A stretch of 64,000 nucleotides of DNA. Origin: Eledone cirrhosa (taxonomy: Eukaryota). The stretch is from the NCBI GenBank assembly GCA_964016885.1, contig OZ024758.1, forward strand, positions 3,906,001-3,970,000, given 5' to 3'. Shown here piece after piece: positions 2,959 through 64,000 of this stretch (positions are counted from its first letter, which is position 1; every line of letters starts with the position of its first letter). Under the pieces are notes generated by a model. The model did no database searches and was not told the origin of the DNA. It saw nothing but the letters and a program-made list of their open reading frames with translations. The position numbers and the translations under genes are program-made.

Positions 2959-3442
2959 CCACCACCACAACCACGAGGGTAGCGGTTTTTCTCTAATTAT
3001 TACAGATTCCATAGCGACTCTGTTGCTATTTGCATACACATTCTTTCCTCAATTACCCAGCGAGAAACCCACAAAGTCGGGATAACAAGGTAGAACGCTT
3101 TCAAAATGCTTCCAGTCAAATTCATTAACCTGATAAGCGAACATAAAAATAACCCATGTCAAAGTCATGATTTCTCCTAGTAAATATGTCCCCTGGGAGA
3201 TTAGACGCTCAGGTTTATTTTCCTTTATGATCGTATGTAAACCTATATATTTTGGCTCATGTTTCTATTAGATTCATGTCCCCTGCTACTTAGTAAGTAA
3301 ATTATTATTGATATGTGTATACAACTGTGTCTACTCTAAAACATATTTCCTTAGTACGCTCTCCTGCCTCCACAAACTACACTTGGTATATTAAGAGTAT
3401 ACAATGTATCACATTAATGTATATACAAACATCTTTACGTAT

Positions 3443-3502
<60 letters not shown>

Positions 3503-3641
3503 TTCCTCTTTTACTAATATAAATACTTCAATTTTTCTGATTTTATCCAATTTATCCAAAATCTCTGAAGAAGTGACAACTGATTATACATTTGCTATCG
3601 AATACTTGCTAACATTATATGATTACGCAAGCAGCGATACA

Positions 3642-3686
3642 TAGGTATTCGGTCTGTTACAGAAACATATGTCAATACCTAATAAA
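3642..3686 (+). ncRNA. Degenerate hammerhead ribozyme relic
   Basis: Helix I TAGGTATT/AATACCTA (8 bp), GAAA-CATATG-TC, then AATAAA; the CUGANGA box is missing. Lies between (TA)n tracts. Confidence 0.5.
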
Positions 3687-3727
3687 TTCCTTTTTTAACA
3701 AAAGCACTTTCATTTTATATTCATCCT

Positions 3728-3763
<36 letters not shown>

Positions 3764-4166
3764 TTGGGAGGGTCATATTTGTGTAATAATATGGCCAGAA
3801 TTAAAAACAGAACACACTCACTGTTTGGTTAGTTTTCGCTTCTGTGTCTTTTATATCGGTTAATTTAATTTATTCGGTCCTCAATGTTACCATTGACTGA
3901 CCAACGGTCAGAAATACAGATACAATATAGATACAAACACATATATATATATAGTCTAACAAAGTTCTTTCATTACACATCTGCAACATCGTCAGTTGTG
4001 CTATTATGTTTCCTCCTGCTGTATTGTATGCATACGCCATCTTTATTTAGTCTGTTTATTTATTATTTATTTTTTTTGTCTTCTCTGCACATGCGTTTGC
4101 ATGTGTGTATATTTGTTTCGACACATGCTTTCATATCAAAAACCTCGCAAAACTAATTCATCGCCG

Positions 4167-4274
<108 letters not shown>

Positions 4275-4338
4275 CAAATATTTTCGAAGAAAAAGCAAAG
4301 GAAAAAAGAGTGTTCTATGTATATAACAGAGCTGTTTA

Positions 4339-4533
4339 ATTAGAAATGGAACAACACAATATATAACTATTCCATTACCAAAGGTTTCAGGACCCCAGAC
4401 AATATTAATATACGTCTAGATCGCTCATCAGACAGATGAACGAGCTAGACGTATATTAATAATGTTTAATTGTCTAGGGTCCTGAAAACTGTGGTAATGG
4501 AGTAGTTATATATTGTCGTGTTCACTTTCTAAT
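4339..4533. mobile_element. Fold-back element with hammerhead-like motif (minus strand 4371-4436)
   Basis: Imperfect inverted arms centred near 4432. Minus strand reads CTGATGA-GCGATCTAGAC..GTCTGGGGTCCT-GAAA-CCTTTGG-TA-ATGGA. Confidence 0.6.
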
Positions 4534-4551
4534 GTATGTATATATATATAT

Positions 4552-4695
4552 ATGGTTTCTACAGGACAAGAACTGTTTCTTTCGAAGGAAATCATCAGGA
4601 TGAAACAGTTCTAGTCCTGTAGAAGCCATTTCTATATCAAATATTTTTTTACTCTGCTAGGTATTGTGTACCTTATCGACGATTAAACTCGGGAT
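4552..4695 (+). mobile_element. (TA)n-embedded fold-back element, family B
   Basis: Arms ATGGTTTCTACAGGAC../..GTCCTGTAGAAGCCAT plus a tail. Minus strand reads CTGATGA-TTTCCTTCGAAA-GAAA. Homologous to 48980-49160 and 56565-56645. Confidence 0.75.
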
Positions 4696-4719
4696 ACACA
4701 TCACACATACACACACACT

Positions 4720-4753
<34 letters not shown>

Positions 4754-4770
4754 CGCACGTACACACTCAG

Positions 4771-4811
<41 letters not shown>

Positions 4812-4813
4812 CA

Positions 4814-4858
<45 letters not shown>

Positions 4859-4872
4859 GCACACATATATAT

Positions 4873-4918
<46 letters not shown>

Positions 4919-5719
4919 CACACATATATACACATACATATATATATATATACACATACACACAGACACACACGTATGTATATATATATATATATATAGA
5001 TGTATATATGTGTTTGTATGGGGGTATATTGAGTTATGTATTTATGTATATGTCTATCTATGTGTAATGGTGTAAGGTCACACTCTCGTTCTTTTATAAT
5101 TTAAACAAGTTGACAGAAATATGAGATTCTAGTAGAAACGAACGCCTGAAATAGTCTGATGGGACTCTCAGCATAGCGTGTTTTACATCAATGAATATTA
5201 TGGCAGATGAATTGATGGCTCATATTTGCAATGGAAGTAAAACATGTCGTACTGCACAAATATTTGGAATTAACAATCATCACTGTTCTAACTTACTTAT
5301 GATGGTAATGGTGGTGATAGATTTGAATATATGTTTTTGCTTGTTGGTGGTGACAGTAGCTGTACTGTCGTAGGTAGTGGAAATTGTGTTGTTGATAATC
5401 GAATTTATGTAGATGGAGAACGTAAGAGCATGAAAGCAATCAGCGAGAAAGTGCTACCAAATTCTGAAGAAATGTGGGTGATTTTCAATAAACAATTTGC
5501 CAAACTGGGACCTGAATAGAGGACGCTTTTCTTTGATGCTTATTTCAATGTCTGTCGTGAAAATCAAGCAGGGCGCGGAGGATAAGTTTTGCAAGTTTAC
5601 GATGACGCCAAGCAAAGTGTTGAATGCACTGAGTTGCTACGAAAAGACTAAATATATATATGTGTGTATGTGTGTATACATATTCGGTTTTTAGTCTTCA
5701 CATTTATTATTATTACTAT

Positions 5720-5760
<41 letters not shown>

Positions 5761-5764
<4 letters not shown>

Positions 5765-5875
5765 AAAGGAGTCAGGACTTCGACGACTGGGCTCTTTATT
5801 ACCCACTCTACTACCCTAAGTCTTGTGTACTCTGGTGCGCTATGTTCCACGTGACATCTTACCACACCCACTTTG

Positions 5876-5876
<1 letters not shown>
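5761..5876 (+). mobile_element. Family A fold-back element, internally deleted
   Basis: TAGGAAAGGAGTCAGGAC start and TTACCCACTCTACTACCC..CTTACCAC..TTTGTTATA tail; flanked by (TA)n. Confidence 0.75.
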
Positions 5877-5914
<38 letters not shown>

Positions 5915-5920
<6 letters not shown>

Positions 5921-6499
5921 ATAACAGGAGGCTGGACTGGTGTAAATCCTTGAAAGGTTTATTATACTATGGTCATTTCAATGACCGTGTTCCGTATGAA
6001 TCCGGTGATATCATTAGGTATTCAAAATATAACAAAGGAACATAACAGATAAAATCCATGGGTCCGAAAATCAAAGACAAAGAGGACGACTGACCAACTA
6101 GCTGCTTTTACCTCGGTCAGTCGCCCTCAAGTGATTCATACGGAACCCGGTCATTGAAATGATCATAGTATAATAAACCTTTCAAGGATTTACACCAGTC
6201 CAGCCTCCTATTATTTTAATTATAATAATTGTTTCTACTTTTGGCACAAGGCCAGCAATTATCCAGTACATTACTGGTACTTTATTTTATCGACCCCATA
6301 AGGATGAAAGGCAAAGTTAACCTCGGCGGGATTTGAACTCAGAATGGCAATTTTAATTATAATAATTAACTCCGTATTCGCACCACCAACTACACAAATG
6401 AAGACGAGTGAGCTGTATTACGTTGAGTATGCCATAATATTACATCAAGATTGACCATACGGAATGACCAATTCTATCCAGTGGTGAACCAACAAACCT
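5915..6499 (+). mobile_element. Family D fold-back element with hammerhead motifs and a nested SINE
   Basis: Inverted arms at about 5915-6003 and 6133-6217. Minus strand 5964-6021 reads ATAC-CTAATGA-helix II-GAAA-TGACCA-TA-GTAT; plus arm reads GAAA-TGATCA-TA-GTAT-AATAAA. Confidence 0.75.
6231..6349 (-). mobile_element. 5'-truncated SINE family 1 with 18-bp target-site duplication
   Basis: ATTTTAATTATAATAATT occurs at both 6213-6230 and 6350-6367. Confidence 0.9.
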
Positions 6500-15738: not shown

Positions 15739-15742
<4 letters not shown>

Positions 15743-15967
15743 AACGAGTAGGAACCCGACGGCTGAGCTCAAGCCGCTTCGACGGCTAATTCTGGACTCT
15801 AATTCAGTCTCTAATTCTGGACTCTAATTCAGTCCAAAATTAGCCGTCGAAACGGCTTGAGCTCAGCCGTCGGGGTCCTACTCGTTCCTATTACCCACTC
15901 TACTACCCTAAGTATTGAGTACTTTGGTGCGTCATGGTCCACCTGGTTCCTTACCACATTTCCTTCG

Positions 15968-15969
<2 letters not shown>
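15739..15969 (+). mobile_element. Family A fold-back element
   Basis: Arms TAGGAACGAGTAGGA../..TCCTACTCGTTCCTA with a 25-bp tandem duplication in the loop; (TA)n flanks. Confidence 0.85.
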
Positions 15970-15996
<27 letters not shown>

Positions 15997-24284: not shown

Positions 24285-24413
24285 AAATAACAGATTAAAG
24301 TTTAAGCAAAGAATCAGTGCTTTCACCCTGAACGGGATCTTCTGAAACTGTTTTAGAAGATCCCGTTAAGGGTGAAAGCAGTGATTCTTTGCTTAAACTT
24401 TAATCTGTTATTT
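24285..24413. mobile_element. Family C fold-back element
   Basis: Arms of about 60 bp around GAAGATCCCGTTAAGGGTGAAAGC; other copies at 56505-56556, 58221-58325 and 62408-62556. Confidence 0.8.
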
Positions 24414-24444
24414 TGATAAATAAATAAATATATATATATATATA

Positions 24445-24640
24445 TGAAAAGATTCAGGACCCTGACGGCTGAACTTCGGCCGTTTCGACAGCTATATTTG
24501 AAGGTTCGGATCTAACTGTCGAAACGGCCAGAGCTCAGCCGTCGGGGTTCTGAATATTTTCCTATTACCAACTCTACTACCACAAATATCGAGTACTCTC
24601 GTGAGTTATGATCCACCTGGTATTCTACCACACCCTATCT
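24445..24640 (+). mobile_element. Family A fold-back element (diverged subtype)
   Basis: CGGCCGTTTCGACAG..CTGTCGAAACGGCC arms plus CTCTACTACC..GAGTACTC tail. Confidence 0.8.
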
Positions 24641-37870: not shown

Positions 37871-39242
37871 AACAAGACCACTAATGTAGCTACCACAACT
37901 GCTATTAAGCATCCCCTACAATTCCAATACTCAGTCTTTTATCAGAAGTGTTTCTAGCAAATGCCGTCCATTAATTAAATAGCCACTCCTAGATCACTAA
38001 GCATTAACCAACCTGGTCTTCTTCTACCTAAACCTCTACAACTACCCCGCTTCAATATCAGAACTATAACCATACACAACCCACTTCTCCTATTAGGATG
38101 TCACAGTTACAACAACTACTTCCATTTCTCAAACATCACTATTACGATAGATCTAGCCGCAACACCACCACAGAACTACCAAACACAAGCCAAATAATTC
38201 CCACCATCTCAATCAAACAACTGTTCGAGGAAATCTACTTGAATTAGATGACTAAGTCATATTAAACGTGTAATGAGCGAACGCCTACTATCACCTTACA
38301 AATACCACATTTACTAAACCTCTCTCAGTTATAATATCAAGATCAAACACCATCATCACCCCTCTTTCTTTAAAGATTCGTAGCAACATGAAATTCTATA
38401 CATAGTCACTCAAACTATGAGAAATGGTAGGCAAATCCTCTTCACCTCATATACTTTTACCTACATATAGGATATATATATATATATATGTAGGAGGTGA
38501 GTTTTATTGTAGTACAATAAAGCAATGCAGATATCGGATAAGTAGCACTCTACAGTTTGTAGGACTTGATTTAAAACTGCACTATTCACAAGTGTTGTTT
38601 AACCTTCATATCATGTCTCCCTATTTTATCTGACGAAAACGCAAATGTCATCTCATGATGATATTTGTTTTTGAAATGCGCATAATAAAATACATGGAAC
38701 TCTTTTAACTATCTTTTGATCTTATATATCTCTCTCTCTCTATATATATATATATATAATGTATAGTATACTGTGCTTGAAATGAGTAACGAGATAGAAA
38801 TTGGTGTAACATATTTGGTTATAGATCTAAAGACCTTGGCCAACTGAGAGTAGACAAGAAAATCTTTTCTTCATCGATCGTGCTGCTTTACAATCGTATC
38901 ATCACATCGATTTCCCCATTCACCACCATCGGCACAGGGTTGGCTACTTGCTGGTGTGGGCCTCACTAGCTGGAATGGCTCTTCTAGTGAGTCTCCATCA
39001 TCATCCTCCGGGGACACACCTTCTCTATTCTGTCCGACAGGGGCACGGGGTGGCCAGCGCGTGGGCCCTTAATTGCTCATAATGGTGAGAGATGGGGAGA
39101 GCGGGATAAACGGAGTCAGTGACAGTAGGAGTTTAGTTCCTTTGTGTTCTGCCCCGTTGTATGTGTATATATTTCACTCACACACACTGAGGCAGTCAAA
39201 CATATATTTGTTTTGTGAAACAATGCATCTAAACAAACATTA

Positions 39243-56242: not shown

Positions 56243-56504
56243 ACCAATTACTATAGAATAACATAATGCATTTACGGCGTTGTTCAAGACAATATTTGGC
56301 CCGCTGCAAATGATTTTCCTGCTATTACGATAATCTCTCAATGGAGTTTGGTAAATAATTAGCTATGTTCACCCTTATTCTGTCCATCCAACAACTAGAA
56401 TACTCATACCCCATCCGACGGTGATCCCTTATTTTATTAAATATTTAAGTACATTGGTAGTTATGTTGGAATTAATTAACATATTAGTTATATATATATA
56501 TATA

Positions 56505-56852
56505 TATTAAAATAATTGATTAAAGTTTAAACAAGGAATCGCTGCTTTCACCCTTATATATATATGATATAGAAAAGGCTTCTATTCTGCTATGTATGGT
56601 GTACCTTACTTACTGTGGTTACCCCTAATTGAACCCGGGATAAACTTATATATATATGACAAGATTCAAGACACCGGCAGTTGAGCTTCGGCCTTTTCGA
56701 CAGCTAGATCCGGAATTCGGATGTAGCTGTCGAAACAACTGAAGCTCAAACGACGGGGTCCTGAAACTTTCCATATTACCCACTCTACTACCACAAGATT
56801 CGAGTAGTCGAGTGGTTATGGTGCACCTGGTATTTTACCATACCCTTTCTGA
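56505..56852. mobile_element. Stack of family C, B and A fragments separated by short (TA)n
   Basis: C at 56505-56556, B at 56565-56645, A at 56657-56852. Confidence 0.75.
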
Positions 56853-58021: not shown

Positions 58022-58334
58022 TAATATTAATAAATACAAAGACCAGCGTCCAATGAGGAATCGAATGATTATATCTTCTCTTGTGTACCTCCTCTACTTT
58101 CTCATCTTAATCTGCTACACAGTATTGTCTTTTGTTGTGACACCACAAAATATCGGTACCAAAACTAAGTTTCACATCAAGAATCGCTCAAAAAACATAT
58201 ATATATATATATATATATATTTATTAAAATAACCGATTACAGTTTAAGCAAAGAATCGATGCTTTCACCCTTAACGGGATCTTCAGAATCTTTGGATTTT
58301 AGTCTTCAAATTTATTATTATTACTATATATATC

Positions 58335-60870: not shown

Positions 60871-61546
60871 TTGAATCACATTTAGGGAGATCTTTTTTTA
60901 TGTTAATATCTAAAAATTGTTTCTTCATAATTCTTACTTCTACACAAATAAGTTTGTGTAGTTAAGAATTACGAGTTGAAATTTATTGAAATTACTAGAT
61001 TCTCGGCTCCACTTCACGGCAGCTTATTAGACCGAAATGTTATTGAATCTCATGAGAGGGACAGTCCCTTCTCTGTAAGGAGTTAATATCACACTATTTG
61101 AAAAGTTCATGTTTGTGGTAAAGTTTACAGTTGCAAGTATTTAAGGTCGGTGTTTGTTCCTGAGGATCGCGTCCTTCAATGTTCTGTTCCTTCCGCCCAG
61201 TTATGAGTGAGGCCCTGCAAAATTCTATGGCTAGTGCATATGACCCGACCTCCTCAGTCTGAGTCAGCCCTTTGGAGACTGTACATAACCACATATTTTT
61301 GCTTTTCATTATATTTTTCTAAACATATTATATGACTTTTAAATATCGGCACTAATGCGTGAGACTCTTGAACATTGTGCTATTTCTAAAGTTATTATTC
61401 ACAATAACCCATGACCATATATGTATATATGATATATTTATATAATAATATGGGGGTGGTGTTTACATATAGCAGGCACACATACATATAGATACATAAG
61501 TATAAACATATATATGTGAGCGGTGTCTGACCTGTAATATACATAA

Positions 61547-61586
<40 letters not shown>

Positions 61587-61678
61587 TTATGTATATGTGT
61601 GTATATATAAGTATATGTATACATATAGAAGATATACAGACATAAGTATAATCATGTATGTAAGTGATGTTTAACATG

Positions 61679-61715
<37 letters not shown>

Positions 61716-62214
61716 GAATAACTTTATAGAAGCTATTGTATATATATGTGTACCATTTCATAAGACGTACATCCGGTATATTTATTTGATCTTCGGTGCA
61801 ACAGAAATTAAATTAAATAAAAATGGGAACCACTGGTCTAGGATATTTAGAACAGACATTGAGAAAGTTAATGTAGAACTTTCCAACATATTCATTCTAT
61901 TCTCCCCTTCCTTCCACTATACGATTCCATTTCAAGTAATATTATTTATGTGTATCGCTCTTTGACAAACACAACCTATTTACACATCGGAACAACTTAT
62001 TGATGTTAATAATCATCAAACAAATATTGTTGAAGTATATATATATATATATATATATACATATAGATCTTGAGTATATGTTGGTTGTATACCAACACCT
62101 CAGTATGCAGGCTGGAGCACTCGACGAGGTGCGCAGGTTGGTTTCGTTACTCCGGAGTAATGTAAAATAAAGTAAAATAAAAAGTCAAATGTTTAAAATT
62201 TAGCTTCGTTTATT

Positions 62215-62269
62215 ACTGCTATATATATTTCGGTGACAGCCATCTTTGGCTGTGACCTCTTCAGGCAGT
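62215..62269 (-). ncRNA. Complete type I hammerhead ribozyme motif
   Basis: ACTGC-CTGAAGA-GGTCACAGCCA-AAGA-TGGCTGTCACC-GAAA-TATATA-TA-GCAGT-AATAAA. All core nucleotides present, 5-bp helix I, helix II pairing at 10 of 11 positions. Confidence 0.82.
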
Positions 62270-62362
62270 CCGAATTAGTGTGGTATAGACAAGTACATAT
62301 GTTGTTGAGGTGTATAATTTTTTCAATACTCTGATATGCCCAGTTCCTGGTTGGGTTGTTAT

Positions 62363-62407
62363 TTCACTGAGGAACTGGAATCATATGATTCCAGTTCCTC
62401 AGTGAAA
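62363..62407. repeat. Perfect palindrome of about 46 bp
   Basis: TTTCACTGAGGAACTGGAATCATATGATTCCAGTTCCTCAGTGAAA. Confidence 0.9.
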
Positions 62408-62556
62408 CTAGAAGATCCCGTTAAGGATGAAAGCAGCGATTCTTTGCTTAAACTTTAATCTGTTATTTTAATAAATATTTGCTCTTATATATCTGATTTA
62501 TATTTATCCTTATCGTGCCCTCTTTGGATTTTAGCCTTCACATTTTTTATTATTAC
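62408..62556 (+). mobile_element. Family C element with tail
   Basis: AGAAGATCCCGTTAAGGATGAAAGC..TCTTTGGATTTTAGCCTTC..(TA)n. Confidence 0.75.
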
Positions 62557-64000
62557 TATATATATATATATACACATAAATAATTGCACACACACAGACA
62601 CAGACAAAGACAGACACACACACACACCCATTTATATATATATATAAACAGACATAGAGAGAGACGAATTAATAGATAGGCATGTAGATAGATAAATATA
62701 TAAACACATATATAGATAGATGGATAGATGAGTATATGAATAGATGGATAGATGGATAGATAGATAGATAGATAGACATAATTTGTCCCAAAAAATAAAT
62801 TGTTTTCAGACATTTTCAAACAAAAATGGATCGACATTATTACAGCAAGGATATATAACTGTAGAGACATATAATATAGCAGATAATTGCTGGAGTGAGG
62901 TTTATCTTTGTTTTCTTTTCGGTACATATATATACATGGAAAAAAAATCATGCTTTTCTTATCTGTGTGTTTTTGTCCTTATTATTTGTCTTTGCTGGAG
63001 ACAGTGACTAAACATGACTTACTCATCCGTGTTCTTTAGTATTTGTTTTCTTAACCTGGCAATAATAACACGCATTAACTGGGCAAATAACTCCAATGGT
63101 AGGGACACCAGGCGGTTTGATGTCAGTGTTTCGTTTATTTAAACAGCATCTCTTCTTATACAGAGTTATGACGGTTTGCTATTTCAATCATTACAAACAT
63201 AAAATGTGAATGATTTCCTTCTATTTACTGAATCATTGCAGCTTTTCCATTAATATTTTCTGTAAGATCAATTTTCCAGCTACATCTTTTTGTGACTTTT
63301 GTTGATACGTGTAAAGGTGAAATCTCTTGCGATATTCTCACAGAACGTAACTTTAATATAAATCATTTCTTAAGAAAGGAAATCCAAAGAAAACTGTTAT
63401 ATACGAAATTAGTTCGATCTATTCATTCCTACTAAAATCATGATTGGTTTGGATTTGGCATGCGTAGACGAGAATGTTCCAAATTTTCATTAAATATTGT
63501 GGACACTGTAGAATCTGAGGAAATCACGAGAAAACATGGCTGCTTGTGCTAATCGGTGGCTGTATGAGGAATGGTTGTATTGAAAGCTGCACTTACATTG
63601 GTGAGATATGATCGGAATGTAAAAGAATAAAAAATCACGTCTATGGATTGTATTTAAACCAATTTTGAGATTTCTGGTTATAAATATTTTCTATAGTGGA
63701 GTGATAGCATTAAGGAAAAAATGAGAAAAGTTAATATATTTATCAGGAACCTGCTAGACGTTAATAATAAGTATGGGGTATATGGAACTATTGACACTAG
63801 AGAGCATTATATGAAGTCCTTGACAAGTATGACTGATGAAGTTTATTTCAATGTTCTCAGAGTACAAACCATATTTCGGATCATAATGATTGAAGAGAGA
63901 GAGAAAAAAAACTCTTTAACTGAAAAACGAAAAAAGTGAGAAAATTACAGAAATGATAAACGGTGTTTAAGAAAATCTTAGCACTGCAGCAAACACTCAT

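Follow-up and report, generated by a model that had tools for sequence, protein, structure and literature searches.

The motif at positions 62215-62269 on the minus strand of the analysed DNA (64,000 nt of Eledone cirrhosa, hereafter the window) is, judged by its sequence, a real type I hammerhead for which self-cleavage is predicted, and belongs to the pLTR of a young Hydra-clade Penelope-like retrotransposon (PLE) present in thousands of copies. The reading that we favour, at a probability of roughly 0.85, is that the window holds a 5'-truncated, promoter-side-deleted insertion of this element in (TA)n, and that the hammerhead would likely be slow and would cleave only as a dimer, probably assisted by protein. 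We commit to the reading that cleavage would matter in full-length transcripts. The window locus is an ordinary transposon fragment, and its solo copy most likely sits there as a passenger that cleaves little or not at all in vivo. Hammerheads of such transposons are an ordinary, already described feature, to which a further family is added here.

Anatomy of the hammerhead

The features of the motif and of the composite insertion that carries it are collected in Table 1. The core comprises C3 U4 G5 A6 N7 G8 A9, G12 A13 A14, an A15.1-U16.1 pair and an H17 that is not G, and these columns are invariant. Helix II is built of three pairs, the C.C mismatch and seven further pairs under an AAGA closing loop, and helix III, from A15.1 to U16.1, is the self-complementary palindrome AUAUAUAU. 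The motif is open at helix I, and compensatory change is seen in all three helices, helix III being counted as a palindrome. No closed loop 1 is evident, and the conserved unpaired C10.4 is a candidate tertiary contact. The C.C mismatch is a family trait and not a sign of decay.

Table 1. Positions of the hammerhead elements and of the surrounding insertion in the window
Feature	Position	Strand	Details	Basis
Type I hammerhead	62215..62269	-	helix I 5 bp, core CUGAAGA + GAAA, H17 = A	sequence, fold, covariation
Helix I, 5' strand ACTGC	62269-62265	-	pairs with GCAGT 62219-62215	
Core CTGAAGA	62264-62258	-		
Helix II GGTCACAGCCA-AAGA-TGGCTGTCACC	62257-62232	-	10 pairs + C.C mismatch at fourth position	
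Core GAAA	62231-62228	-		
TATATA-T-A after GAAA		-	U16.1 = 62221, H17 = A 62220	
Predicted cleavage site, after AUA	62219..62220	-		inferred from hammerhead numbering
AATAAA	62209..62214	-	6 nt after predicted cut; possible poly(A) signal	
pLTR 3' part, Hydra-clade Penelope-like element	62163..62384	-	from 5' truncation point to 'short' 3' end	
Tail, ~97 nt, between the two 3' ends	62066..62162	-	in full-length copies runs into the ORF's 5' leader	
(TA)n target microsatellite, 3' end	62036..62065	.		
23-bp inverted copy of element 5' end	62385..62407	+	fold-back at CAT|ATG	
3' end + tail, second Hydra-like repeat family	62408..62556	+	head to head	
(TA)n, other end of composite insertion	62557..62571	.		

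The initial annotation had described helix I, the core, a long helix II, GAAA, a palindromic helix III and H17=A, all of which is exact for this sequence. Its identification as type I with a cut between 62220 and 62219, and its suggestion that monomers and dimers be compared, find support in this anatomy and in the covariation among relatives described below. It had also placed AATAAA directly next, followed by about 150 nt of tail, and the sequence bears this out with ~145 nt up to (TA)n. The word 'intact' is right for the core and helices, which are complete, but does not imply activity, given the cost of forming helix III, a disfavoured helix I and the lack of a partner. Likewise, the good preservation is real, but its reason is that the insertion is young and one of thousands of near-identical copies, not a host function.

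When positions 62205-62280 are folded with RNAfold, helices I and II form and helix III is left unpaired; the energy is -18.7 kcal/mol (z -2.86), a value at least matched by 3 of 200 shuffles. A strict descriptor finds two sites in the window, the 62215-62269 hammerhead and one at 38630 (+), and none in 300 dinucleotide shuffles. Rfam reports no family at gathering score anywhere in the window, and none of its 38 hits at E<=10 within 61500-63000 is to a hammerhead model.

A second complete type I hammerhead, as complete as that at 62215-62269 and belonging to another family, lies at 38624-38690 (+). It has a CUGACGA core, a long helix II with C.U at position 4, the palindrome AUGCGCAU, and AATAAA inside helix I. 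The motif runs on into (TC)n(TA)n, and relatives are found in several loci.

Copy number and parent element

The element is abundant in this genome, which measures 3.0 Gb and is rich in (TA)n. Exact genome matches to a 34-nt piece of the ribozyme number 5,714 (reversed control, 0), and a 341-nt query gives at least 89 matches (40 scored of 1,642 candidates), the best 40 of which are 96-100% identical. The element is also present in contigs from three of four sequencing runs and was not found in the remaining one, such contigs being unable to show ends or expression. When copies are ordered by position, they extend for kilobases upstream of the 62384 equivalent, into a coding parent. At locus L071, an inverted pLTR with tail is followed by a pLTR with tail, a frameshifted RT/EN ORF (3276-5934), ~1.1 kb of non-coding sequence and a 3' pLTR that ends in (TA)n; two same-strand hammerheads lie ~4.1 kb apart, giving a unit of about 4.1 kb. 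The EN piece of this locus, used as a query, scores at 150 places with 94-100% identity.

Among eight long-frame loci examined, seven show the EN motif in frames of 649-894 aa. The frames of L121 (894 aa) and L122 (893 aa) stay open from RWK through CxH and contain RWK, DKT, YRDD, CxCx5C, YIG, CxxC and CxH (in L121, RWK at 39, DKT at 122, CxCx5C at 754, CxxC at 852 and CxH at 880). Identity among five ORF copies is 97.6-99.3% at the DNA level, and the first ATG of the parent lies ~53 nt beyond the tail. L071 and L121 thus have the layout of a Penelope-like element, with a single ORF for RT, with GIY-YIG at its C terminus, between pLTRs. The GIY-YIG match of the EN piece (E 7e-4, 20.2 bits) is below the cut-off of 22.6 bits, Pfam recognises neither an RT nor an EN family when given the whole ORF, and a PDB sequence search returned nothing meaningful. 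ESM Atlas neighbours of the ORF are eukaryotic RT and HTH_animal clusters (0.93-0.97), and it is on these neighbours and on the motifs that the RT identity rests.

Section 11 of PMC8557442 gives, as features of the Hydra clade, RWK, DKT, CxCx5C, and CxxC with CxH around E and N, together with the lack of a CCHH. L121 has this set, the absence of CCHH being judged by eye, and a (TA)n or (TC)n microsatellite terminates 129 of the 140 family arms; the clade assignment is one by motifs and not by a tree. The unit of about 4.1 kb in L071 departs from the length tendency of the clade, which is under 3 kb and not strict. An earlier guess, the Nematis clade, was dropped against this definition of Hydra (PMC8557442).

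A palindromic MITE or SINE with a fixed axis was also considered and rejected, since the first 30 loci were biased by a query that contained the inversion and copies often run upstream into the ORF. Exact-axis fold-backs number nine among the first 100 listed arms, counted by eye, and the fold-back axis is a hotspot, not a rule.

At L071:6817-6960, two CCAAT-containing repeats are found upstream of the 62384 equivalent, where many copies start or fold back; they may mark the pLTR promoter and the transcript 5' end, and the window copy is without them. Several more Penelope-like families with GIY-YIG have long open frames in this genome (L051-L070, up to 938 aa in L051), and a GIY-YIG search gave 10,596 first-look candidates.

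Insertion ends and copying

The 3' ends of the family are of two kinds: the short site (62163) accounts for 70 of 140 arms and the long site (about 62066) for 69. Insertions occur in tandem or inverted with a tail of about 97 nt, and inverted ones combine one short and one long arm in 40 of 43 cases, a bias that is also seen at loci chosen independently of similarity to the window (20 of 22, p 6e-5). Moreover, arms within one insertion share variants, both those typical of a subfamily and private ones, differing by 2.7% as compared to 4.1% between insertions (21 insertions; 0 of 10,000 permutations). The copies also show that cDNAs run 57 or about 154 nt past the predicted cut, so that their templates were neither cut nor polyadenylated there.

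A mechanism can be proposed in which the RT-endonuclease would nick (TA)n on both strands and cDNA would be primed at two sites of uncleaved RNA, 62163 and about 62066, to give one short and one long arm per insertion. For an element of Anolis, PMC11167929 describes in vitro priming on both target strands and two RT start sites bounding the tail, and the short and long arms with their shared variants fit such two-site, two-strand priming.

At three places (window 62385-62408, L081:2604-2638 and L127:3335-3378), arms of different Penelope-like families are directly joined, which suggests either that cDNAs of two RNAs met at one nicked site or that one insertion is nested in another. Elsewhere (L016, L021, L074, L077, L088 and L108), copies of the same or different families lie back to back in one (TA)n run, and the same microsatellite target has thus been used repeatedly.

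Conservation and covariation

Between sister families, the hammerhead is conserved beyond its non-coding surroundings. A sister motif (family B) has 3,771 exact genome matches and lies 0.8-1.2 kb behind an EN in 3 of 30 loci, this EN being 52-70% identical in amino acids to that of the L121-type family. Over 1.4 kb of non-coding sequence, families A and B have in common only the 66-68 nt of the hammerhead, at 81-84%, and their EN DNA is 70-73% identical. In 51 arms collected through the EN protein, and hence unbiased for the ribozyme, minority letters amount to 16/2801 in the hammerhead versus 62/2803 in the 55 nt upstream (p 1e-7); the 30 nt downstream, with 12/1529, are close to the hammerhead. 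The core is intact in 49 of these 51 arms.

The initial annotation had proposed that covariation be sought across genomic copies. Scanning 158 loci together with the window yielded 62 motif variants, from which ten relatives were picked by hand: 99.3% of cells are paired, 11 of 14 pairs change on both sides, and none of 500 shuffles reaches this score, a control that overstates the significance since the set was chosen by a pairing-based scan as well as by hand and its members are related. Helix III covaries as a palindrome, from AUAUAUAU to AUGCGCAU. Divergent families keep the same core letters but covary in the helices, and the comparison indicates selection on the ribozyme within the transposon lineage. 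The link to Hydra ORFs is firm for families A and B and weak for C (L073); families D to F have none.

In the left arm of L005, helix II is locally inverted to a perfect hairpin without C.C, as a template switch within the hairpin would do.

Comparison with known systems

As far as PMC8557442 describes it, the Hydra clade, which includes Hydra-1_Obim, resembles the present family in its single RT and C-terminal GIY-YIG ORF, the motifs named above and (TA)n targets, as well as in a hammerhead near the 3' end and in insertions, tandem or inverted, that carry a tail on one side. In contrast, the hammerhead sequence listed for Hydra-1_Obim in the supplement of that paper is unrelated to that of the present family, whose unit is longer (about 4.1 kb versus under 3 kb) and shows low-complexity sequence separating RT from EN as well as a 3' region of 1.1 kb. 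The tail is about 97 nt as opposed to 30-40 in the clade and, unlike what is reported for the latter, intact pLTR-ORF-pLTR copies occur.

The metazoan PLE hammerheads covered in PMC4209133 (Drosophila virilis Penelope, rotifer, shrimp and mosquito) share with the present one the palindromic helix III, the predicted dimer, the type I arrangement, a long helix II and a short helix I without defined loop 1. Helix II of D. virilis has a bulge at mid-helix, and that of the present family is likewise irregular there. Compared to the examples given in that paper, the present family lacks an unpaired base between A9 and 10.1 and has, in place of the bulge, a C.N mismatch at 10.4/11.4 that is symmetric, an 8-nt palindrome, and a 10.1-11.1 pair that varies (G-C, G-U or A-U).

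Poseidon of Anolis (PAc), in the account of PMC11167929, is alike in its two RT start sites bounding the tail, its AT-rich targets, extension on both strands and a cDNA template with an uncut hammerhead. The ORF of PAc starts inside stem II, whereas the first ATG of the present ORF lies beyond the tail. An ATG in loop II of the window copy was considered as a PAc-like ORF start and rejected, its frame stopping after 15 codons. Non-LTR retrozymes, from what is described in PMC7229834 and 10.64898/2026.07.22.740005, are similar in their type I hammerhead, weak helix III and short non-coding repeat, but the present family is without tandem monomer arrays and its copies are truncations of a coding element.

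Predicted activity

Since helix III is palindromic, dimers and not monomers are predicted to cleave. In the monomer, forming the 2-bp helix III costs a computed 2.7 kcal/mol, and for the C11.1 form the computed minimum free energy structure of the dimer is a double hammerhead, 7.2 kcal/mol better than two monomers. An unstable monomer with a stable dimer, as in known PLE hammerheads, is thus obtained by computation for C11.1 but not for U11.1, whose predicted dimer fold is not a hammerhead. With 60 nt or more of upstream element, helix I has a probability of only 0.02-0.09, although forcing it in this context costs only 2.4 kcal/mol; read-through of a fold-back copy buries it entirely. PMC4209133 reports that motifs with a small palindromic helix III are inactive as monomers and of low activity as dimers. 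A full-length tandem transcript would contain two hammerheads separated by ~4.1 kb, whose helix III palindromes would pair with each other, and a unit-length RNA would be cut out.

PLE hammerheads are conserved, slow in vitro and dispensable for insertion in one reconstituted system, according to the part of PMC11167929 that deals with them. The present family is a good test bed: it is young and has thousands of copies, its ORFs are intact, C11.1 and U11.1 both occur naturally, its sister ribozymes include several diverged ones, and the core of a neighbour family is broken.

Alternative explanations

The sequence just 3' of the cut suggests another role. In all 11 hand-picked relatives with an 8-nt palindrome, as opposed to none of three other hammerhead types, AATAAA is found at +0 to +13 of the cut, position 10.4 is an unpaired C in the same 11 representatives, and a U-rich tract is found downstream of AATAAA. 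These observations would suit a ribozyme/poly(A) switch, in which a cut between the ORF stop and AATAAA would strip the poly(A) signal and tune translation or stability, with C10.4 as a tertiary or protein contact, and the Clec2 3' UTR hammerheads share this geometry as far as they are described in PMC6765202. Such a switch is nonetheless unlikely: the region is A/T-rich, giving about a 2% chance per family over a window of 14 starts, the families share ancestry, AATAAA is simply the 3' strand of helix I itself in four of them, and the cDNAs that run past the cut point to templates that were uncut and not polyadenylated at this place. We are equally doubtful of a wider proposal, that Hydra hammerheads are a distinct subtype in which C10.4 and AAUAAA (3' of or inside helix I) form a dimer-gated cleavage/polyadenylation switch controlling the transposon mRNA; if true, it would give the unexplained Penelope hammerhead a concrete job. 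Neither the invariant unpaired C10.4 nor AATAAA 3' of the cut was found described in the portions of the literature searched. The mid-helix II mismatch may already figure in work by Lunse et al. on PLE hammerhead dimers.

The hammerhead could also be vestigial, its cleavage being no longer needed and its structure being kept otherwise, for example as an RNA structure bound by RT. This would agree with the ORF-linked subfamily, where G10.1-U11.1 is found in 51 of 51 arms and the predicted dimer fold is not a hammerhead, with the amplification of the adjacent Hydra-like family despite its broken core, and with the report that hammerhead mutants still insert in vitro, insertion being unaffected in the experiments described (PMC11167929). 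It is quite unlikely, as a core that is invariant across divergent families, with helices and dimer palindrome that covary, fits selection on catalysis.

Spread as a non-autonomous retrozyme, i.e., as a small hammerhead repeat copied through circular RNA from tandem monomers, is very unlikely. Many copies are indeed short (about 320-550 bp) and non-coding, and animal retrozymes are reported to derive from PLE pLTRs in the part of 10.64898/2026.07.22.740005 concerned with them. The short copies are, however, dispersed or inverted, head-to-tail arrays of 150-400 nt hammerhead monomers that lack a coding parent are not what is found, and the 5' ends differ among copies and lead into the ORF-bearing parent, with 1,290 of 2,757 arms continuing exactly into native upstream sequence. 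The window element itself, 319 nt from 62384 to about 62066, 5'-truncated and flanked by the 23-bp inversion, is 94% identical (299/319, pLTR part and tail) to the 3' end of the full-length, ORF-bearing copy L121. Finally, a host-domesticated ribozyme that processes a host transcript at the window locus would explain the complete core and helices of this copy but is extremely unlikely, since it differs from the majority of its 30 closest arms at three positions, none inside the ribozyme, as expected of a young neutral insertion, the 61 ORFs scanned of the 135 listed in the window (38-64 kb) gave no Pfam hits that would indicate host exons, and neither the window nor the next 20 kb holds a second copy of the family as a dimer partner.

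The pLTR hammerhead in a truncated PLE insertion remains the preferred reading, and the neighbouring sequence offers some further observations. An intron (GTAATA...GGAG) downstream of the ribozyme, raised on sequence alone, has weak sites and was rejected. The adjacent repeat at 62408-62556 was ruled out as a second hammerhead, as its hammerhead-like core is degenerate (CAGAAGA-hairpin-GAAA) and has neither U16.1 nor helix I. This abundant Hydra-like repeat with a degenerate core is also present at 24285-24422, 56500-56556 and 58217-58325 and in L160-L170, with 3,253 first-look candidates; in L160 a Hydra-like EN precedes it by 1.1 kb, its copies often break or invert at the core, and the family may have spread after loss of its ribozyme. 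A further fold-back repeat is found beside (TA)n at 15740-15970, 24446-24600 and 56650-56800, with inverted arms of ~55-60 bp and a tail, and is probably also Penelope-derived.
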